Below the pieces are notes generated by a model. The model was not told where the DNA came from. It worked only from the letters and a program-made list of their open reading frames with translations, and searched no databases. Positions 4,988-31,298 of a stretch of 40,860 bases of DNA are shown here, piece by piece; the first letter of the stretch is position 1, and each line of letters begins with the position of its first letter. The stretch lies in the NCBI GenBank assembly GCA_020051235.1, contig JAGVJG010000135.1:1-40860 (forward strand), written 5' to 3'. A program made the position numbers and the translations under genes. Source of the DNA: Parachlamydiales bacterium. Its GTDB lineage: Bacteria; Chlamydiota; Chlamydiia; Chlamydiales; Parachlamydiaceae.

Positions 4988-5821
4988 ATGAAAGTTCAAT
5001 ATAGTCTATTTGCGGTTGTTAATGAGAAATATATAGATTTCAATGCAGGTCATGGAAAGGATGCGAACATCATTTCAGCTTTGGAGGCATTAAATCTAAC
5101 ATCAACAACTATTCAGAGTGCGGACAATTATTCCCTCGTAGCTAGGAAGCTGGTTCAAAAGTATGAAAGTAATAGAACCTGGAAAGAGAAAGTTGTAGAT
5201 TTCTTTAAACATTTGATTTGTATCACCACAGAATATGATTATGTTCAATCGCTTGAAAACTCCATCAGGAGAAATAAGCATGTAGAAGCTGTTCCTGTTG
5301 AAGAAAAAGCCCGCTCGTTATTAGTTGGAGCAAATCTCGCTCCTTCAACCGATGATGATGAAGCGGTCTATTTGGCTTATACTCATCAACCAAGTGAACA
5401 GTTATTATATCGTTTATCATCCCAGGGCAAAGATAAATACATTCCTGAGATCATAAACAATCGATTCCGTTATGATGTCGATGCAGCAAGAAAATTGCTT
5501 AACTTTATGAATCCAGGCAAAGCCCATACAAAGGCAGTAAAGGAAATTTTATCAGACAGATTTAGTTTTGAATATATGTATTGCTTGGCAAATGTCGAAC
5601 AGTCCGCTAGAGCTGAGTTGATAAACTTGTTTATTGATCAAGCAATTGCAGAAATAAAAATGTCAAGTCGGCCTAAGGATTCATTAACTAATACATTTTA
5701 TAAACTTAAAGAATTGGGCGCGACTAAAGACGGCCTTACTCTATTTGCTAAAGAAATCGAGATCGTAATTACTGATTACGATGCGAACCAACTCAAAACC
5801 TTTTTAGAGAAGTGGGTATGA
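4988..5821 (+). CDS. array gene 1: hypothetical protein, family 1 (N-terminal DFFKHLxCxTTEYD module)
   Basis: 277-aa ORF with an AGGTG RBS. The motif DFFKHLICITTEYD is encoded at 5198-5239. The C-terminus is helical and unassigned. Confidence 0.75.
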   Translation: MKVQYSLFAVVNEKYIDFNAGHGKDANIISALEALNLTSTTIQSADNYSLVARKLVQKYESNRTWKEKVVDFFKHLICITTEYDYVQSLENSIRRNKHVEAVPVEEKARSLLVGANLAPSTDDDEAVYLAYTHQPSEQLLYRLSSQGKDKYIPEIINNRFRYDVDAARKLLNFMNPGKAHTKAVKEILSDRFSFEYMYCLANVEQSARAELINLFIDQAIAEIKMSSRPKDSLTNTFYKLKELGATKDGLTLFAKEIEIVITDYDANQLKTFLEKWV

Positions 5822-7326
5822 CGCACTTATATCTGCATGCTACAGAAGGAAATATCACCCACTTAGTTTATAACAAGGTGCCCCTCAAAGGTGAGGGCCG
5901 CGCGCTTAAAACTTTGCAAACCCTTGCTAATGCCCGTATTTTAAATTACGACGATCTTAATCAAAAGCCGACTGCTTTAATGCAAAAGGCAGCAGAAGAT
6001 GTAAAAGGGTGGTATGAGGCGCGGCGTAGCTGCTTTTCGGTTATTCGTGACTTTTTTGCTCATTTATTTTGCATGACAACAGAATATGACAAGATCATTG
6101 ATTTAGTTGCTAAAATTAAAGCTTTCAATGCCTACACCATTCACGATTACGCAAATCGTGTTTTTGATCAGCTGATGGTTTGTCCGGCTTTTAATAGTTG
6201 TGATGAGAAAGTTGCAAAGTTAGACGATAGCATTAAAAAAGAAGTGGCTGAACGTCTATATGGTTTGGCGGTGATGGGAGGTAAATATAATATAGCTGAA
6301 AAGTTACTGAAATTTTGCGATCCCGATAAAGAAATCAATCTGATCAAAACTTATAGAAATTACAATGAGTTTGACCGAATTAATGCCCTTCTTCCTCGTT
6401 TAACTGTCGGTAAAGCAGAAGCTGAACAATGTCTTCTTGAAGAAATGGTGAGAAAAATTCATCAAAACCGCATTCCTTCTTACGAAGTGTTAGCAAATTA
6501 CGATGATAATCTCACAATAAAATACATAACTAAGAGAGTCGACGAACTAATTGCAAGGAAAGAATTCAAAGATCGTTTATTTGAGAATCCGATTTTTTAT
6601 TTGCGAAAAGAACTAGTTGCTAATCCTGAGTTTGTAAGACTTTTAGCTCGCTATAACGAAGCAAAACAGGTCGAAGAAAGAGTAATCAAAGAGAAAGAAG
6701 AGATAGCTCAAAATCGCGATTCGAAAGCTAAAGAAATTGTTAATTCATATGATTTTAATACGATTATTAATCTAATTGATGAATCCAATTTCATAGACAC
6801 TAAAGAATTGAAGGAAAGAGTCTGTTTTTTTGCCTTTAATAAAGCATTAACTGAAAAAGATCTTCACTCCGCTTATAGATTTTGGAAGATTAGTACAAGT
6901 TTACCATCGCTTCACTTGGAAGACGCGGTAATTGCTAATAATTTAGCTGTAATTCCGTTAGAAGATATAAGTAAGTTTATTGATAAAAGAAAGCTGAGTT
7001 GGCTTTTAGTCAAAGATAAATTGGCAAATGGTAAATACAATTACATTCTCCCGAAAGATTTGAATTTAATAGAAGTAAGAGATTATTTCGAGGCGCTTAT
7101 TTCCGATCCCTCGGTAAAGGGTTTGGACGATAAATCAAAGTCATTAGTTAAAACTCAATTAACAGCCTTTGTAGAAACTTTAAAAGCCTATAATGGACAA
7201 ATAGAGAAATATAGAGAGCTTTTCAAAAAAGATAAATACCATACGAGTATTCCTATGGATGTATGTAGCTATCTAAATAAAGAGCCAATTATCAATGTGT
7301 ACGAGGAATTTATACGCACTTTATGA
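5818..7326 (+). CDS. array gene 2: hypothetical protein, family 1
   Basis: ATGA overlap with gene 1 (ATG at 5818; the track start at 5812 is a GTG). The motif DFFAHLFCMTTEYD is at 6049-6090. The N-terminal ~95 aa are closely similar to gene 3. Confidence 0.75.
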   Translation: MTHLYLHATEGNITHLVYNKVPLKGEGRALKTLQTLANARILNYDDLNQKPTALMQKAAEDVKGWYEARRSCFSVIRDFFAHLFCMTTEYDKIIDLVAKIKAFNAYTIHDYANRVFDQLMVCPAFNSCDEKVAKLDDSIKKEVAERLYGLAVMGGKYNIAEKLLKFCDPDKEINLIKTYRNYNEFDRINALLPRLTVGKAEAEQCLLEEMVRKIHQNRIPSYEVLANYDDNLTIKYITKRVDELIARKEFKDRLFENPIFYLRKELVANPEFVRLLARYNEAKQVEERVIKEKEEIAQNRDSKAKEIVNSYDFNTIINLIDESNFIDTKELKERVCFFAFNKALTEKDLHSAYRFWKISTSLPSLHLEDAVIANNLAVIPLEDISKFIDKRKLSWLLVKDKLANGKYNYILPKDLNLIEVRDYFEALISDPSVKGLDDKSKSLVKTQLTAFVETLKAYNGQIEKYRELFKKDKYHTSIPMDVCSYLNKEPIINVYEEFIRTL

Positions 7327-9068
7327 CCCATAACTATTTACACGTTACGCACAACGGCAGCAAAACTTGTCTTCAATATTCTCATGAGAAAATTGAAGGA
7401 TCGGGACGGGCTTATAAAACCTTGAAAGCAATAGCCGAGGCGTCTGAAATCGAAGGGGATTCTATTACAGCTGCCGCTCAAGTGAAAAAGTGGTACGAAG
7501 AAAGAAGAACTTGCTTTTCAGCTATAAGAGATTTTTTTGCTCACCTTATTTGTCTAACGACGGAATATGACAAAATTCAAGTGCTTTTCAATACGATAAA
7601 GAAGAAACAGCCCGAAGTAAAAAAGCCTAATGTAGATTTAGACGGTGCTTTTCAGAACATCATTCAGGGAAAAGTAAGCACTTCTAGTGTTACTTATAAA
7701 CTTAATGATACTGAAAAACAGCAGTTGAGCACTCGACTCTTTTATCATTATATCATTACCAAAGATGTTGAGAAGGCTTATTCCTTCCTTTTAGACGAGC
7801 AAAGTCCCAAACTTCTCGAACCTTCTATAGAAACGGCAAGCGCTATCAATTCATTGTCTCAAGAACTTGCTACACTCATTATTAAAGATTCTTTCGTTCC
7901 TGAAGATAAAGTGCTTATAGAGATCATGTTTCTCTATTATTGTCATAAAGAAAGTTTTTCTGCTGCCTACAACCTCTATTGTCAAACTAAACTGAAGTTA
8001 ATTAGCCTCAAACTTGAGTTAGATTACCTAATGCTTGGAGATAAAGTTCTTAAGAAACGAGATGGATCCATCTTTGATTTAGAGTTCATGCAAAGACTAT
8101 TTAATACTGAACAACACTATCAACTACATATCGAATATCGATTTTCTAATGGCTGCAACTTTGAGTACCCAAGAGGAGAAGTGAATCGTCCTTTATATTT
8201 TAAACTTCTCAAAAAGTATTTAAGCGAGAGATTGGAACAAATTCAAAATGTTCGTTCTTTAATTGATCAGTTTAATCGATTTGCAGATGAGCTTAAGGAA
8301 TCAGACCAGGGAGAATATCGTGCCTTTGCAGCTTCTCTTAAACAGTTTGATAAAGAGCCCGTTCCAGTGCAAACGCCTGCACCTGAAACTAAAGCCAATG
8401 CCTCTGAAACATCATTTGATATTTGCCTAAGTTTTGATCGTTTAGAAGGGGCAGAAATATTATTGCGAAACAAGCAAGTGGGTGAAAATAAACGGATAGA
8501 ATTACTTGAGAAATATTTTTATAAAGGTGATGTCGAAAGAATAGAATTTCATTATTCTCAATTGTCTGATAACTCTAAAGCCCTTTATAAAGAGCGTTTT
8601 GAACTATATTTAAATGAATGTGCCTCAAACTTTGTTAAAAACACTGATGTATTAGGACCAATTAATAAATTAGAGAGCAGTCCCAGATTATATAATCGTA
8701 TTCTTCAAATATTTTTTAGCGAAAATTTGAAGGACGGTAAATATCTAATTAAAAATCCTCGTCCTGATTCAGGGGTTAATATTGTCATGTATAATGGAGC
8801 TTTACATGACTTTCTTTTGGAGAATTTAGATAAATTAACCGATTCTGAAAGTATATCCACACTTTCAAAACAATTTGGAACCTTAGGTGAAATCTTAAGG
8901 AGGAAGCATGAGCACCCCTTGTATCCCATCTACACATTAGGAAACACTCAGAATAAACAATCACTTTTAGATTTGAATCCTGATCTCGCTTCTTATTTAG
9001 AAATTGTAAAGCGTAAGGATGAGTTTTTATATCTCTCTGAGCAACTCAAGAAGAAAATCAAATCATAA
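7323..9068 (+). CDS. array gene 3: hypothetical protein, family 1
   Basis: ATGA overlap with gene 2. The motif DFFAHLICLTTEYD is at 7530-7571. A Pro-rich linker (EPVPVQTPAPE) lies mid-protein. 581 aa. Confidence 0.75.
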   Translation: MTHNYLHVTHNGSKTCLQYSHEKIEGSGRAYKTLKAIAEASEIEGDSITAAAQVKKWYEERRTCFSAIRDFFAHLICLTTEYDKIQVLFNTIKKKQPEVKKPNVDLDGAFQNIIQGKVSTSSVTYKLNDTEKQQLSTRLFYHYIITKDVEKAYSFLLDEQSPKLLEPSIETASAINSLSQELATLIIKDSFVPEDKVLIEIMFLYYCHKESFSAAYNLYCQTKLKLISLKLELDYLMLGDKVLKKRDGSIFDLEFMQRLFNTEQHYQLHIEYRFSNGCNFEYPRGEVNRPLYFKLLKKYLSERLEQIQNVRSLIDQFNRFADELKESDQGEYRAFAASLKQFDKEPVPVQTPAPETKANASETSFDICLSFDRLEGAEILLRNKQVGENKRIELLEKYFYKGDVERIEFHYSQLSDNSKALYKERFELYLNECASNFVKNTDVLGPINKLESSPRLYNRILQIFFSENLKDGKYLIKNPRPDSGVNIVMYNGALHDFLLENLDKLTDSESISTLSKQFGTLGEILRRKHEHPLYPIYTLGNTQNKQSLLDLNPDLASYLEIVKRKDEFLYLSEQLKKKIKS

Positions 9069-9165
9069 CTTTGGGTAGTAAGAAAATAAGTGCAAATATG
9101 GATGGTTTGTTAAGAACGCGTTAATTTTAGCCCTATAACCCCTTTTAAAATGTTAAAATATTATT

Positions 9166-16843: not shown

Positions 16844-17592
16844 TTTTCTTTTCTAGCTTTCCAAAGGTGGGCGATGCCCCCACTTTTGGAATTTACTTTA
16901 ATTTCCTTAAAGCCTGCTTTCAACATTTCCTCTTCAATAATCTTTGGATCCACGAATTGAGCGATGCTATTGGATAAATAGCGGTACGCTTTTGGATTCA
17001 TTGTAATTAAGCCCCCAATAGTGGGCAAAATTTGATTTAGATAAAAAGCGTGTAAGGGTCTTAATAGAGCTGAACGGGGTTCTGTTAAATCGAGTATTCC
17101 AATGGTGCCACCGGGCTTTAAAACACGATAGGCTTCTTTGAGGGCTTTCGATCTATCTTTAATATTTCGAATTCCATAAGCACAGGTAATTGCATCAACC
17201 GAGTTATTGGGAAGGGGTAATAATTGCGCGTCGGCTTCGAGCCAATCCACCTCATGATTTTTTGGTGCTCTTTGCTTGGCTTGAGCCAGCATTTCGGCTG
17301 AAAAATCAAGAATCAATGCTTTTTTAGGGTTTTTTTGTTTCTTTAACCACATATACGCTATTTCACCCGTTCCTCCACAAAGATCAAGAAGAACCGAGGC
17401 TGCTGGATCGATCGTGTTTATTAACGCGCGATTCCAGCCTTTATGCAGGTTAAACGAAAGAACTCGATTTGCTAAATCATATCGGGGGGCAATCGTATTA
17501 AATAACGATTGAATCGATTGGGGCTCTGTTTTGGAATAAGTGCTATTTTTTGTCATCGTCGCAGAGGGAGCAGTGGGTTGTTTTTGAATCAT
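16840..17592 (-). CDS. ubiE: demethylmenaquinone/ubiquinone C-methyltransferase
   Basis: FNTIAPRYDLANRVLSFNLHKGWNR, LDLCGGTGE and VLKPGG are typical UbiE/MenG motifs. An alternative start is the ATG at 17556. Confidence 0.85.
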   Translation of the reverse strand: MIQKQPTAPSATMTKNSTYSKTEPQSIQSLFNTIAPRYDLANRVLSFNLHKGWNRALINTIDPAASVLLDLCGGTGEIAYMWLKKQKNPKKALILDFSAEMLAQAKQRAPKNHEVDWLEADAQLLPLPNNSVDAITCAYGIRNIKDRSKALKEAYRVLKPGGTIGILDLTEPRSALLRPLHAFYLNQILPTIGGLITMNPKAYRYLSNSIAQFVDPKIIEEEMLKAGFKEIKVNSKSGGIAHLWKARKEN

Positions 17593-17731
17593 CGCAGGAT
17601 TTTGGATCTCGACCGCAAGCGCCGGGTTTAATCTTTGATCTTCCCGTTAATAACCAGCCGATAGCGAATCCAAAAAGGGCTAGAATGACAAGAACAGAGG
17701 AAATAATTATAGTGGTAAAGAGATCACCCAT
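17543..17731 (-). CDS. nqrM: small membrane protein, (Na+)-NQR maturation factor NqrM-like
   Basis: 62 aa with one N-terminal TM helix (IIISSVLVILALFGFAIGWLL). Four Cys follow (GACG...C...CSLC), which fits the NqrM/DUF539 description of a single TM plus four conserved Cys. This rests on memory, not a search. Confidence 0.5.
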   Translation of the reverse strand: MGDLFTTIIISSVLVILALFGFAIGWLLTGRSKIKPGACGRDPKSCDDSKTTHCSLCDDDKK

Positions 17732-17746
17732 AACTATAAGTGTATA

Positions 17747-18709
17747 ATGGTTTTAGGCTTCAAGTCAAATCACATCTTTAAAAACGGCTCCTTTCAAAAA
17801 GGATCGATTTTTTTTGATGAAAAGCAAATTCTTGCGAAAGGTAAAGTTACCGAAGATCTTAATGAAGCTTTTATTTTGCCAAGACTCATCGATCTTCAGG
17901 TTAATGGGGGATTCGGAATTGATTTAACCAGTGAACCGGAAAGAGTCGAAGAGTTAGCTAAGCATCTTTATGAATGGGGCTTGGGAGCTTTTTGTCCCAC
18001 GCTTATAAGCATGCCGCTTAACAAATATAAAGCCGCACTTAAGCATTTTAAACCTCGTAAGGTGCGCGGGGGCGCTGAAATTTTAGGCGCTCATTTAGAA
18101 GGGCCTTTTCTTTCGATCGCAGGTGCTCACAATGAAAAGTATTTGATTAATGAAACGGATATTCCCTTAGAAAACGTTAGATTGATTACTCTTTCTCCTG
18201 AAAAAGTTTCTCCTTCTTTTATCGCAAAATTAAGAAAAAAGGGGATTGTGATTGCGGCAGGTCATTCGAAAGCCGATATTTCTACCTTGATAAAGTTGAA
18301 AATCCCCATGGTTACCCACTTATTTAATGCGATGCCTTTTCATCATCGAGCGCCAGGTTTAATAGATTACGCTTTAACTCAACCTGTTTATTACTCCCTG
18401 ATTGCGGATAATAAGCACATTTCTGATTCCGCTTATGAAATAGCTAGAAAAGCTAACCCCGATGGATTAATTCTCGTTTCAGATCTCGCTCCTTGGTTTC
18501 AAACAAAAAACAAGAAATTTAGGTTAGGAGATAGAGAATTTAAAAAAGGGGAGCTGGCAGGAAGTGAAATGTCTCTTTTAGAGATGGTTCTTAGAACAGG
18601 CAATGTTGCCGCTGCTACCACCCGTCCCGCTCAATTATTAGGTCTGCCTCACTTAGGCAATTTAAATCCCAAAAGTTCATCCGATTTTTTAATCATTCGT
18701 CATGAGTAG
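17747..18709 (+). CDS. nagA: N-acetylglucosamine-6-phosphate deacetylase (compact, 320 aa)
   Basis: LIDLQVNGGFG (E. coli-type QxN metal site), HLEGPFLS, AAGHS, THLFNAM and PAQLLGL are present. Confidence 0.8.
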   Translation: MVLGFKSNHIFKNGSFQKGSIFFDEKQILAKGKVTEDLNEAFILPRLIDLQVNGGFGIDLTSEPERVEELAKHLYEWGLGAFCPTLISMPLNKYKAALKHFKPRKVRGGAEILGAHLEGPFLSIAGAHNEKYLINETDIPLENVRLITLSPEKVSPSFIAKLRKKGIVIAAGHSKADISTLIKLKIPMVTHLFNAMPFHHRAPGLIDYALTQPVYYSLIADNKHISDSAYEIARKANPDGLILVSDLAPWFQTKNKKFRLGDREFKKGELAGSEMSLLEMVLRTGNVAAATTRPAQLLGLPHLGNLNPKSSSDFLIIRHE

Positions 18710-19232
18710 TTATCAACTTACTGAAATTCGAGAAAAGTGTCCTATTTGTTTAGAGACAAACGATAGACTGATGGTTGCACACAATAAGCAACATCCTATT
18801 CATATTAAGTGTATAAAAATTTGGTATCGAACTGGGAAGCATTGTCCGATATGTCGAGAGCCATGCAATTTAGATGAGTTTATAACTTTAAAGGATCGTA
18901 TCTGGTCTATCTTATCCATAGAAGATATTCTTAACTGCATGGCTTTTATTTCATTCAGCAGTTTATTTGCGGAAACGGAATTTAGTTTAATCGGCGCACT
19001 TTTTGCAGTCGGACTTATGGGATGTATATATAGAGATACAGGTGAATTGACGATTATAAAAATTGGCCTGATTGCTGCCTATTTCTACTATTTAAGAACC
19101 CATCCTATGGTCTATTCAGGGATAACTTTATCTTCGGGGGTGGCAAGGTATAGTTTTGAACGAGCGGTGATTTCATTTAGAAATACCGCTCGTGAATTTC
19201 AAGCTATGTTAGAAATCCAACTTAACGAGTAG
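18702..19232 (+). CDS. membrane-anchored RING-H2-type zinc-finger protein (eukaryote-like E3 ubiquitin-ligase domain)
   Basis: CPIC-x10-H-x3-H-x2-H-x2-C-x10-CPIC (18738-18854), with the hallmark HxxCIxxW....CPICR signature. Two to three hydrophobic helices follow. 8-nt overlap with the nagA stop. Confidence 0.7.
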   Translation: MSSYQLTEIREKCPICLETNDRLMVAHNKQHPIHIKCIKIWYRTGKHCPICREPCNLDEFITLKDRIWSILSIEDILNCMAFISFSSLFAETEFSLIGALFAVGLMGCIYRDTGELTIIKIGLIAAYFYYLRTHPMVYSGITLSSGVARYSFERAVISFRNTAREFQAMLEIQLNE

Positions 19233-19233
19233 T

Positions 19234-21228
19234 TTATTCGTCATCTTCATCGAAATCATCAAAGTCATCTTCTACCTCTTCAACGGGCGCTTCAATGACT
19301 TTAGGGATAATCTTAACGGGTTTTTTACCTGTATGTTTAGAAACAGCTTTTGAAGGAACATAGTCAACCCAGATAGGGGAGGACCACGCCATATGTCCGT
19401 CTTCTTGTGTCACTCTTAGGTAATAATAGACAAAAGGAGGACGTTTATCTTTTGAAGGAATAACCACCTTTTGAAGTGATTCCATATCATCATATTCGAA
19501 ATCAAAGTCTTTTTTATTGGGTTCAAATGACTTCAAAACTTTGCCGTTACGAATAATTTCAATTTTGGCTAAAGGCTTTTTGCCCGCTGCAAAACCGGAA
19601 ATATGTCTGATAACATTTAAACCGTGCTTTTCTTGGGTGGAGAGCTCCTGACCCATTAAAGCGCCCGCAATGTTAAATCCGAGAATGATTCTTTCGCCGG
19701 TTGTCGCATAGCAAGAACGGTTATAAAGGGCATCGAATAAAGAGGAGCGGTTATACTCATTTGCGATAATGGCTGTTAAACCCGGAGGATATTGAACTTG
19801 GCCGCCTTCAAAGAAATCGTTGTAGAAGCCTCTATCATCTAATCCGCCTCCAACAAATCCAAAACGGCAGTTGCGATCAAGCGCTTTAATAAGTGCGCCT
19901 TCAGATGATTCAGTAACCCCTTTTTTGCCTTCGGTATCGATAGGCATCGGGTTTCCTTCTTTTTCGGTAGTCTCCGAGGATCCCCAAGAGTTGTAAATTT
20001 CTACCACTCTTTCGAAATCAGGATCGTAATCTTTAAAGTCATACTCAAGCCCTTTCGCCATCGTGAAAGTAGGAATAGCGATCATTTCCTTAGGGGAAAA
20101 ACCCTTATAGATTTTTTTGAGATTCGCTTTTGCATCTTTCTTACGGATAATGGGCTTATTTTCTTTTGAGAAGACTAAAACACGGTTTCCTTCTGTTTTG
20201 GCATCGCCTTGCCATTGGAAACCTAGGAAGGTTGCAAAACGATCTTCTTCGTTGAAATCCACGATATTTTGTGAAATGGATTTCCAAATATCGTTAGGAG
20301 TTTCTTCCTGACTTTCAAAAGGAGATACACCATAGAAGTTGTACGCTTTTTCATCACGGAAGTGTCTCATGCAACTTTCGATATTTTCTGTGGAGTCATA
20401 GCGCTCCGACTCTCCGTGCAAGGTTCCCCAGAATAAGCTTTTTACGTTTTCAGGGAAGCAACGGATAGGAGAGGATAGAAACTCTTCTTTCGTTCTCAAG
20501 TTTTTGAGTTTAATCGTATAGGTTCCGGGTTCGTTGAAATAGAGGTTTGGAACCGCTAAAAAGCCCGTTTCAGGAATGAAGAGTTTCCAGTTTAGATTTT
20601 CTCTTAAATTCTCGTAGGAAAGCTCGATTAAAGTGTCATCCGGTGCATTGTTAGTTAAATTGCCATGCTCATCTTCAAACCGTAGGACAATGTCGAATCT
20701 TTTATTTCTTGAGACGTATGAAGGAGTAATGATTTTAATTACTTTTAGCTCGGCCCCTTTCACATCCATTTGAAATTGTTCAGCTTCGCCATATTTTCCT
20801 TTTCCTGTCGGATCGATATGAAGGAAAAAGGGGCGACGTCTTTGTGAGACGAGCTGGGCAGAAGTTCCGTTAGTATGGACTTGATTTCCTACGGGTTTTG
20901 GAGCGCCCACATAGATAACAAGAGTATTACCGGCAGAAATCTGCTGAGGCAAGATAAATTCAAAATTAGGAACGACTGAATCTTTTGATTCAACCGCTTT
21001 TGCAGGAATAACTTTTTTGTTATCTATAACTAGGTAGATAACGTTTTCTTTTGCCTTTAAATTCGTTGTGGGAGTTTCCCAGTCAATATCGCGTCCTTTT
21101 GATCCAAGATCAAATAGAAGCTTTGTTCCTTTAGGCAAGTTTTGAGCCGGAGTAAAGTTAAAGGTCCAAGTGTTTTTTTCGCCGGCCTCGGCAAATTGGG
21201 GTTCGGTTACACAAATCGATCGTCGCAT
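19234..21228 (-). CDS. conserved hypothetical protein (beta-sandwich-like N-terminus, possible degenerate DUF3604/PHP-like core, acidic tail)
   Basis: Long uninterrupted 664-aa ORF. FWGTLHGESERYDS weakly resembles the DUF3604 YWGDLHxHTxxSxD motif but lacks the metal-ligand residues. The C-terminus is EEVEDDFDDFDEDDE. Confidence 0.6.
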   Translation of the reverse strand: MRRSICVTEPQFAEAGEKNTWTFNFTPAQNLPKGTKLLFDLGSKGRDIDWETPTTNLKAKENVIYLVIDNKKVIPAKAVESKDSVVPNFEFILPQQISAGNTLVIYVGAPKPVGNQVHTNGTSAQLVSQRRRPFFLHIDPTGKGKYGEAEQFQMDVKGAELKVIKIITPSYVSRNKRFDIVLRFEDEHGNLTNNAPDDTLIELSYENLRENLNWKLFIPETGFLAVPNLYFNEPGTYTIKLKNLRTKEEFLSSPIRCFPENVKSLFWGTLHGESERYDSTENIESCMRHFRDEKAYNFYGVSPFESQEETPNDIWKSISQNIVDFNEEDRFATFLGFQWQGDAKTEGNRVLVFSKENKPIIRKKDAKANLKKIYKGFSPKEMIAIPTFTMAKGLEYDFKDYDPDFERVVEIYNSWGSSETTEKEGNPMPIDTEGKKGVTESSEGALIKALDRNCRFGFVGGGLDDRGFYNDFFEGGQVQYPPGLTAIIANEYNRSSLFDALYNRSCYATTGERIILGFNIAGALMGQELSTQEKHGLNVIRHISGFAAGKKPLAKIEIIRNGKVLKSFEPNKKDFDFEYDDMESLQKVVIPSKDKRPPFVYYYLRVTQEDGHMAWSSPIWVDYVPSKAVSKHTGKKPVKIIPKVIEAPVEEVEDDFDDFDEDDE

Positions 21229-30491: not shown

Positions 30492-31298
30492 ATGTTGTAT
30501 TATCTGCTTATAATTGTTCCCTCTATTTTGTCTTCGTTTTGTGTTGATAATTTATCTGTTGGTCTTGAATCGGGTTATCGGCAACAGCGTCTGCAATATA
30601 CTTCTATTGACGAAGACCGTGTGATTGGTTGGAAAAATATGAATGGCTGGCAAAACTTACTGAAAGCCACCGTATCGTCTGAACTAGGGTTGTATATTGA
30701 AGGGGATCTTTCCTATACCCGGATATTTGAGAGACAAAAATGTAATGGGAATTCGACTTTCGCAGAACTTATGCTGGGTTACTCGTTCACATGGAATTGT
30801 CTAACTTTTACACCTTTAGTCAGTTATGTATATGAAAAGGATCATATCCGTAGTCATGATGCAGGAACCTTTGTTCTTTCTACGGATGAACTTGCTCAAA
30901 TGAAAGGATTCTATTCCACAAGATTCCAAGGGCCATCGTTGGGAGGCAAGGTAGACACTTCTTGGAATGATTGGGATCTCTCCCTCTTAGGGCAGTATAT
31001 TTTTGCTGATTTTCTAGGTAGATCGAAATGGGTGATAGGGTCTGAATACCTTCATAAATTAAGACAGAAATCAGCTCATGCGTACGGCGTTTATTTAAAG
31101 GCTTCAATTCTATATAACTTAAACTGTAAATGGAAATTGGGATTGGTGGGAGATTTTACCTATTTTAAGGCAAATCGGGCATCTGAAAAGGGCTCCATTG
31201 ATCTTCTGATTGATAATGATGTGCATTATCATGCGAGCACAAAAGATGCGATTATGCGTGCATTTGCGGTAAGGGGAATAGTTGAATACGAATTCTGA
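30492..31298 (+). CDS. putative outer-membrane beta-barrel protein
   Basis: N-terminal hydrophobic leader. Repeated alternating-hydrophobic strands are visible (LGLYIEGDLSYT, LMLGYSFTW, WKLGLVGDFTYF). The C-terminal residue is Phe (VEYEF). Confidence 0.5.
   Translation: MLYYLLIIVPSILSSFCVDNLSVGLESGYRQQRLQYTSIDEDRVIGWKNMNGWQNLLKATVSSELGLYIEGDLSYTRIFERQKCNGNSTFAELMLGYSFTWNCLTFTPLVSYVYEKDHIRSHDAGTFVLSTDELAQMKGFYSTRFQGPSLGGKVDTSWNDWDLSLLGQYIFADFLGRSKWVIGSEYLHKLRQKSAHAYGVYLKASILYNLNCKWKLGLVGDFTYFKANRASEKGSIDLLIDNDVHYHASTKDAIMRAFAVRGIVEYEF

Follow-up and report, generated by a model that had tools for sequence, protein, structure and literature searches.

A RING-finger gene of an environmental chlamydia encodes a candidate membrane-anchored ubiquitin ligase from a large and divergent family

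The gene described here lies on contig JAGVJG010000135.1 of a Parachlamydiales bacterium (NCBI GenBank assembly GCA_020051235.1), of which positions 1 to 40,860 of the forward strand were analysed; this whole stretch of 40,860 nucleotides (nt) is referred to as the window. The gene occupies 18702..19232 on the + strand, begins with ATG and encodes a protein of 176 amino acids (aa) plus stop, in which an N-terminal RING finger is followed by predicted hydrophobic helices. That the product of 18702-19232 is a RING protein is near certain from its sequence and modelled fold, and at the level of the family the homology to eukaryotic RING-H2 E3 ubiquitin ligases is unambiguous in profile comparisons. 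As judged from sequence, model and analogy, the product is probably a secreted, membrane-anchored RING E3 ubiquitin ligase effector. This reading is favoured because of the RING homology and fold, the conservation of residues that make contact with an E2 (a ubiquitin-conjugating enzyme), the chlamydial context, the accessory nature of the gene, and the precedent of the chlamydial RING proteins SneRING and NEX1b.

The RING core comprises residues C13-R52 (18738..18857, + strand), with the Pfam zf-RING_2 match extending over residues 12-52, and its putative ligands follow the pattern C13-x2-C16-x10-H27-x3-H31-x2-H34-x2-C37-x10-C48-x2-C51, with R52 directly after. The motif that a first-pass annotation of the window had read at residues 13-51 (nt 18738-18854) matches the translation exactly and has the RING-H2 spacing, which falls within the canonical cross-brace C-x2-C-x(9-39)-C-x(1-3)-H-x(2-3)-[CH]-x2-C-x(4-48)-C-x2-C, ligand 3 being a His in place of Cys. 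Searched on its own, the protein matches zf-RING_2 with an E-value of 4.9e-6 (27.2 bits, the Pfam gathering score being 27.3) and the RING-H2 family zf-rbx1 with an E-value of 5.6e-6; weaker matches were obtained to zf-C3HC4 and related models, and RING and RING-H2 profiles are the sole Pfam families that it matches at E <0.1. A phmmer search of the Protein Data Bank (PDB) with the single sequence recovered RING domains exclusively (the equine herpesvirus 1 (EHV-1) RING at E 6e-5, Arkadia, RNF24, ARK2C and RNF38). The matches become stronger among relatives: all 50 sequences of an alignment of relatives (A2) match zf-RING_2, the best at 1e-10, and 49 of them match zf-rbx1. The A2 profile finds in the PDB the RINGs of RNF4 (E 7e-14), Ark2C (7e-11), Arkadia and RNF165 (about 2e-10), and gp78/AMFR and synoviolin/HRD1 (about 2e-9). 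It had been asked at the outset whether the Cys/His cluster might belong to another bacterial zinc-ribbon family. The query has no match to zf-HC2, Prok-RING or the zinc-ribbon families of Pfam, and for this reason the anti-sigma (zf-HC2) and zinc-ribbon readings are rejected; Prok-RING_4 is matched weakly by only 2 of the 50 relatives. Likewise RINGv is not matched by the query at E <=1, and 10 of the 50 relatives match it weakly.

The fold prediction agrees with the profiles. In an AlphaFold2 model of the query built on alignment A2, the RING region has a predicted local distance difference test (pLDDT) score of 87-94 over residues 11-50 and shows a beta-beta-alpha core composed of strands 24-27 and 31-34 and helix 35-44. 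When the model was compared with the PDB by Foldseek, the top-ranked structures were the RINGs of RNF38, Ark2C, RNF165 and RNF12, with root-mean-square deviations of 1.6-2.7 Å over 46-54 residues and target-normalised template modelling scores of up to 0.77. The probability was 1.0 for most of these matches, and their E-values of 0.01-0.05 are as modest as they are because the RING domain is tiny within the 176-residue query. Both the zf-RING_2 profile search and the structure prediction had been named in the first-pass annotation as checks, and each spoke in favour of its assignment of a RING.

The zinc ligands are of interest since the third of them is a His throughout the family. Positions M1, C13, C16, H27, H31, C37, C48, P49 and C51 are invariant in A2 (n=50), and H34 and W41 are conserved in at least 90% of its sequences, which are only about 20-25% identical to the query. 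Hidden Markov model (HMM) alignments to canonical RING-H2 domains place Lys29 of the query in the Cys3 slot (two residues before His4), and across the family this slot is filled by non-ligand residues. His27, which had already been picked out as ligand 3, is invariant in 50/50 relatives and is found in the model at the C-terminal end of the first beta-strand, that is at the structural position of Cys3 in canonical RINGs; invariance and strand position together suggest that His27 binds the second zinc. The proposed zinc site 1 consists of C13, C16, H34 and C37, and the proposed zinc site 2 of H27, H31, C48 and C51. The distance from ligand 3 to ligand 4 is three residues in 24 family members, six in 35 and seven in 11, with a range of 2-10. 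From its sequences the family is thus a C2H3C3 variant of the RING, in which the loop that joins ligands 3 and 4 can expand; RINGs with such a formula of ligands were sought in the literature, and nothing relevant came up.

In active RINGs, four residues bind the E2 and prime the E2-ubiquitin conjugate (E2~Ub), and the linchpin Arg or Lys among them matters for activating E2~Ub beyond E2 binding alone. The query possesses all of them, namely the E2-contact residues I15, W41 and P49 and the linchpin R52. An Ile or Val precedes the second Cys ligand in 78 of 83 family members, and an Arg or Lys follows the eighth ligand in 67 of 83. The retention of such surface residues at 20-25% identity is difficult to account for if the partner is not an E2.

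Downstream of the RING, residues 59-66 (EFITLKDR; 18876..18899, + strand) correspond to a short family motif for which alignments A2 and A3 give the consensus S-L-x-S-W-K-E-R. A [WLFYM][KR][DEQ][RK] motif follows the RING in 50 of 84 family members, and in the model helix 63-70 spans this region. Next come two predicted hydrophobic helices, residues 73-89 and 95-109 (18918..19028, + strand), which lie five residues apart and form a candidate membrane hairpin in the AlphaFold model, and these are followed by a third predicted hydrophobic helix (116-133) and a long C-terminal helix (135-175), the latter two together encoded at 19047..19226 (+ strand). The first-pass annotation had counted two to three hydrophobic helices after the RING, and the three modelled here agree with that count; their hydrophobicity is real yet moderate, with a maximum Kyte-Doolittle 19-residue mean of 1.62. 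Most relatives have a more strongly hydrophobic tail, and a Kyte-Doolittle window of >=1.5 occurs after residue 60 in 66 of the 76 family members that are >=110 aa long, while sequences past the post-RING motif are not conserved across the family. At the other end, the N-terminus is Ser-rich and semi-conserved, with MSVSF in 10 of 84 members.

The gene is real, is under purifying selection and is compositionally at home in its surroundings. A collection of 5.8 billion proteins contains one close relative, P0002, which is 62% identical over the full length and is carried by two short assemblies that are independent of each other (orthologous loci L001 and L002). Both loci have the same gene order, namely a UbiE-like gene (reverse), a NagA-like gene and the RING gene, with an 8-nt overlap between the last two that is identical to that in the window. 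All eight putative ligands are identical between the query and P0002, and residues 111-135 are identical at 24 of 25 positions, L116 being the sole difference. The Nei-Gojobori ratio of non-synonymous to synonymous substitution rates (dN/dS) against this orthologue comes to 0.26 over the whole gene, with 0.37 in residues 1-60 and 0.22 in the remainder, and it is because of this ratio that the gene is held to be real and under selection. Its GC content (36.2%) and GC content at third codon positions (GC3, 31.1%) are akin to those of its neighbours, the window as a whole having 38.1% GC; given this similarity in GC and GC3, a recent horizontal transfer of the RING gene is unsupported. The family HMM detected no paralogues of the gene in the window or in the related loci, a tblastn search of a plasmid collection gave no match to it, and the PADLOC defence models matched neither the gene nor either of its neighbours. 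When 185,579 species-representative genomes were scanned with a two-sequence alignment, no relative was found at the patterns used, so that the gene is absent from these representatives or too divergent in them to be detected with those patterns.

More distant relatives are numerous. When 1.84 billion cluster representatives were scanned exhaustively by HMMER with a two-sequence profile (the query and P0002), 259 proteins were obtained at E <=1e-3, and among the best 150 of these 259 there are 84 with a His at ligand 3, so that the family comprises at least 84 clusters. The RING starts within the first 32 residues in 81 of the 84, and lengths range from 83 to 301 aa. As far as the sequences tell, the query represents a large, uncharacterised chlamydial family with a common plan, that is an N-terminal RING, a short conserved motif and a hydrophobic tail. 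Look-ups of 30 clusters provided a single taxon label, Chlamydiales bacterium SCGC AG-110-P3. A second labelled member, from a Rhabdochlamydiaceae bacterium metagenome-assembled genome (MAG) and named 'RING finger domain-containing protein' by NCBI, came from a word-indexed protein search that returned only 4 and 3 proteins with alignments A2 and A3, respectively. The few further names attached to looked-up clusters told nothing, and the JGI/IMG name 'trimethylamine:corrinoid methyltransferase-like protein', carried by one family member, is evidently wrong. Other members occur singly among housekeeping genes (dnaJ, lon, feoB) on bacterial contigs of up to 318 kb, and one of them (P0015) overlaps an upstream recX gene by 4 nt; the upstream neighbour therefore varies among members, and no functional link of the family to NagA follows. 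Another member, P0033 (L011 1-12564, on a 232-kb contig), lies amid dense IS630/DDE transposase and integrase fragments, a setting that points to mobile or degraded regions as the location of some members. The strongest matches outside the family (P0003, P0004, P0009 and P0010) are long proteins with five to eight matched RING stretches each; P0003, P0004 and P0010 have a Cys at ligand 3, a pattern from which P0009 departs; the N-terminus of P0009 is signal-peptide-like, and its repeat units are nearly identical.

By its gene content and synteny the source organism is an environmental chlamydia, in line with the chlamydial setting that the first-pass annotation had alluded to. The RNase Y encoded in the window shares 77% identity with its counterpart in an uncultured MAG (L003) and 55% with the one in a Waddliaceae MAG (L004); in both, RNase Y adjoins a DUF3604-like gene that corresponds to the 664-aa gene of the window (81% identity in L003, 61% in L004), and a UbiE-like gene lies beyond this pair. 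A chlamydial origin of the window is further supported because it encodes a member of the Protochlamydia outer-membrane protein family (Pom; 30492-31298, + strand) and a protease with PDZ_4 and peptidase S41 domains (37936-39567, + strand), and the two labelled family members mentioned above are chlamydial as well. The RING gene itself is accessory, because L003 and L004 lack it at the syntenic site. The NagA-like orthologue of L003 (56% identical, 329 aa) has no RING gene after it; there, the RING-gene site between the DUF3604-like and NagA-like genes (L003 13509-15733) is taken up by three unrelated open reading frames (ORFs), which are 280, 155 and 305 aa long and have no homologues in the window. 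L004 has neither a NagA-like nor a RING gene at the site. The RING gene thus stands in a variable spot, and the junction of the DUF3604-like and NagA-like genes is a hot spot for lineage-specific genes.

Several known systems resemble the protein in part. The best matches in both sequence and structure are eukaryotic RING-H2 ligases (Arkadia/RNF111, Ark2C/RNF165, RNF38, RNF12, gp78/AMFR and HRD1), with which the query shares the cross-brace spacing, a His at ligands 4 and 5, the I/V-W-P triad that contacts the E2, and the linchpin Arg. It differs from them by its His at ligand 3, by a ligand 3-4 loop of 2-10 residues in the family, and by its location in a bacterial operon. Membrane embedding, which is proposed for the query, is found in gp78 and HRD1 as well, but their RING follows the membrane domain, whereas that of the query is at the extreme N-terminus of a protein shorter than 300 aa. 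The first-pass annotation had likened the architecture to that of eukaryotic membrane RING ligases, and the predicted layout does resemble that of the MARCH proteins and the viral K3-K5-MIR proteins, which have an N-terminal cytosolic RING directly before transmembrane helices; the viral ones are pathogen-encoded, and these ligases ubiquitinate membrane proteins. The RING subtype differs, however, since the MARCH/K3 RING is of the C4HC3 type (RING-CH/RINGv) and that of the query is C2H3C3. MIR2 and MARCH-like viral proteins appear as weak full-length Foldseek matches and are not significant over the membrane part.

Among chlamydiae, RING proteins have precedents. Simkania negevensis has SneRING (SNE_A12920), an E3 ligase with UbcH5b-dependent activity, which consists of an N-terminal atypical RING and then an alpha/beta domain; it belongs to a small Simkaniaceae family, is presumed to act as a secreted effector and in host cells is in part associated with membranes (Horner et al. 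2025, PMC12591485). The same work lists three further RING-like candidates of Simkania, and SNE_A08690 and SNE_A19470 are chlamydial RING-like proteins with lost ligands (PMC12591485). With SneRING the query has in common a source among chlamydia-like bacteria, an N-terminal atypical RING and a His at the third ligand position of zinc site 1. Going by its published description, SneRING has NxxC for the first two ligands of zinc site 2 and a Ser at an E2-contact position, where the query has H27/H31 and Ile15, and its C-terminus is alpha/beta, whereas that of the query is all-helical and hydrophobic in the model. The NEX1b proteins of Neochlamydia, the only RING/U-box proteins in the chlamydial genome set of 2014, have an N-terminal RING/U-box, a conserved 50-aa linker and C-terminal leucine-rich repeats (LRRs) (Domman et al. 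2014, PMC4209131). They are similar to the query in being chlamydial proteins with an N-terminal RING-type domain, and are presumed to interfere with host ubiquitination; unlike the query, they are not small hydrophobic proteins, and they carry LRRs. A different likeness is to the chlamydial inclusion membrane (Inc) proteins, which are also small, accessory and lineage-specific and have paired hydrophobic helices with a short loop. By analogy with the N-terminal region of Inc proteins, which could carry a type III signal, the N-terminus of the query could likewise do so. Compared with Inc proteins the hydrophobic domain of the query is moderate and there is a third hydrophobic helix at 116-133, a bilobed character of the Inc type being uncertain, and we know of no Inc protein that carries a RING. 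In the literature, no account was found of a family of small proteins in which a RING at the N-terminus is joined to a hydrophobic tail, an earlier mention in the survey of Burroughs et al. 2011 being not excluded.

A mechanism can be outlined for a secreted RING ligase, in which secretion and membrane topology are only what we infer, and so are the zinc stoichiometry, the ligase activity and the substrates. The RING gene would be co-transcribed with the NagA-like gene and translated by re-initiation at the ATG located 5 nt before the upstream stop. By analogy with chlamydial membrane effectors, the product would be exported into the host cell by type III secretion by means of the N-terminal residues ahead of the RING. 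Helices 73-109, and possibly 116-133, would then insert in the vacuole membrane or another host membrane and leave the RING in the host cytosol. There the RING would bind two zinc ions in a cross-brace (C13/C16/H34/C37 and H27/H31/C48/C51) and dock host E2~ubiquitin through I15, W41 and P49, with R52 as the activating linchpin, and ubiquitin might be passed to nearby membrane-proximal host proteins or to the RING protein itself.

A number of points weigh against a secreted ligase. The single-query zf-RING_2 score is 0.1 bit under the Pfam gathering score, ligand 3 is a His and not a Cys, and the geometry of zinc site 2 is inferred solely from invariance and strand position. The predicted helices of the query are short (15-18 residues) and of moderate hydrophobicity, which makes it uncertain whether they insert in a membrane and with what topology. 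The 40-kb window has no gene for type III secretion, and an operon-like pairing with a gene of metabolism is not what typically speaks for an effector. A taxon is available for only two family members, both chlamydial, the other 28 clusters looked up being unlabelled, so that a restriction to chlamydiae is not shown. The support is wholly computational.

Three other explanations have to be set against these data. The protein could be an inner-membrane protein intrinsic to the bacterium, whose zinc finger makes protein-protein or regulatory contacts with bacterial partners and has no role in host ubiquitination; in one version it would possibly be tied to the NagA-like enzyme or to cell-envelope metabolism. 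Such a role would fit the 8-nt overlap with a metabolic gene, which is kept in the orthologue, the 4-nt overlap of P0015 with recX, and the placement of other members among dnaJ, lon and feoB, and it draws on the fact that secretion of the RING protein is proposed by analogy. Bacterial anti-sigma factors are moreover laid out with a zinc finger at the N-terminus and transmembrane helices after it. The query, however, lacks a match to zf-HC2 or Prok-RING, with Prok-RING_4 weak in 2/50 relatives, and its domain is nearest to eukaryotic RING-H2 ligases. The upstream partner differs among family members, with no conserved NagA pairing, and no genes for bacterial ubiquitin-like, E1 or E2 proteins adjoin the RING gene. 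The probability of a bacterium-intrinsic role is lowered by the conservation pattern, as the surface residues in contact with E2 and ubiquitin (I/V, W, P and R/K) are kept across a very divergent family, and to our knowledge these residues have no role in bacteria, which lack E2 enzymes. We regard such a role as unlikely.

A secreted RING-like decoy or adaptor, inert as a ligase, which sequesters E2 or binds some other host factor, is about equally improbable. It would account for the His at ligand 3 in every member and for a ligand 3-4 spacing of 2-10 in place of the canonical 1-3, and the chlamydial RING-like proteins SNE_A08690 and SNE_A19470 have lost ligands (PMC12591485). Yet the x3 spacing of the query itself is canonical and the linchpin Arg/Lys is kept in 67/83 members, and a decoy is rendered less likely by the precedent of SneRING, which is active despite less canonical ligands, including an Asn at ligand 3 (PMC12591485). 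That the gene is an artefact, be it a chance Cys/His pattern, a spurious ORF, a pseudogene or mis-assembled DNA of a eukaryotic host, could be argued from its short length, its position squeezed between two genes, and a single-sequence Pfam score just under the cut-off, but the chance of this is slight in the extreme. An artefact is made less likely by the orthologue and selection data, namely an orthologue of full length, carried by two independent assemblies, in which the ligands are identical and the gene order is unchanged, and a dN/dS of 0.26. To these are added related clusters, at least 84 in number, on bacterial contigs as long as 318 kb and a GC content of 36.2% against 38.1% for the window. 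A chimera is excluded because the start of the gene overlaps the stop of a bacterial gene. The orthologue, selection, family and composition data together refute an artefact, and a secreted, membrane-anchored RING ligase is left as the favoured reading.

With regard to the locus, the gene immediately upstream of the RING gene encodes a NagA-like amidohydrolase of 320 aa (17747..18709, + strand). The two genes share a start/stop overlap of 8 nt, ATGAGTAG (18702..18709, + strand), which contains the ATG of the RING gene 5 nt ahead of the TAG stop of the upstream gene, and a single base (19233) separates the stop codon of the RING gene from that of a convergent gene (19234..21228, - strand). The ORF boundaries, the overlap and the 1-nt gap are as first annotated, both in the ORF list and in the raw sequence. 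The naming of the neighbour as nagA did not fare as well: the protein matches TIGR00221 (nagA) at E 8e-37 with 127 bits, the cut-off of 225.65 not being reached, over model positions 45-280 of 380, it scores 114.7 bits against NF008371, where the cut-off of 483 is not reached either, and its match to Pfam Amidohydro_1 is weak. On these scores the gene is best called NagA-like and not a certified NagA. The overlap is compatible with translational coupling of the RING gene to the NagA-like gene. Upstream of the latter, a sigma-70-like promoter match, ATGACA-17-TATAGT (17685..17713, + strand), agrees with the consensus at 10/12 positions; promoter-like sites in the region are no more numerous than expected from shuffled sequence, so that this candidate is weak evidence. 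A + strand promoter-like site was looked for between the NagA-like and RING genes and none was found. The match at 17685..17713 is a candidate promoter of a two-gene operon (NagA-like and RING) and compatible with co-transcription.

The convergent gene encodes 664 aa, with a partial DUF3604 match that covers only about 40 residues and a strongly acidic C-terminal tail (…EEVEDDFDDFDEDDE). Ahead of the NagA-like gene, an ORF of 62 aa (17543-17731, - strand) has one hydrophobic helix and a Cys-rich tail and is without a Pfam match; by eye it has a 'G-x-C-G-R-D-P' stretch in common with a 104-aa ORF of the Waddliaceae MAG (L004 6880-7194), and both ORFs are positioned just upstream of ubiE. Farther away, 4988-15791 (+ strand) is taken up by two tandem arrays of paralogous hypothetical genes, with six ORFs in 4988-12684 and three in 12681-15791, which share blocks of 27-64% identity and have no Pfam match apart from a weak LRR_8 in 13862-14878. 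The block is absent from the syntenic region of L003, where aroB nearly adjoins ubiE; the arrays look like a lineage-specific expanded gene family and are possibly an effector island. At the start of the window, which cuts it, an apparent aroA-aroK fusion (29-1309, + strand) encodes the C-terminal part of EPSP synthase and a shikimate kinase domain, and is followed by genes for chorismate synthase and 3-dehydroquinate synthase. Rfam detected nothing in the window.

Manipulation of ubiquitin is central to the survival of intracellular bacteria, and the known chlamydial toolkit consists mostly of deubiquitinases and F-box proteins. RING effectors have already been described from bacteria, chlamydiae among them (SneRING and NEX1b), and the novelty here is the ligand set and the architecture; it was not until 2025 that a first active RING ligase of chlamydiae, SneRING, was reported. 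A tentative extension, which we consider possible rather than likely, is that the relatives form a widespread and previously unrecognised family of chlamydial membrane-anchored RING E3 ligases, marked by the C2H3C3 ligands with their expandable ligand 3-4 loop and by the S-L-x-S-W-K-E-R motif; placed in the vacuole membrane or in other membranes of the host, they would be bacterial counterparts of MARCH/K3 and would ubiquitinate proteins in host membranes or close to them. With its invariant His at ligand 3, the family lends itself to a natural test of the variation that the zinc site of a RING can tolerate, and the members are small and modular, which makes biochemical testing easy. If the proposal is true, chlamydiae would possess a second and much larger class of candidate E3 ligases (at least 84 divergent clusters), and these ligases would be tethered at membranes, where ubiquitination in host defence and the targeting of the vacuole for autophagy take place.

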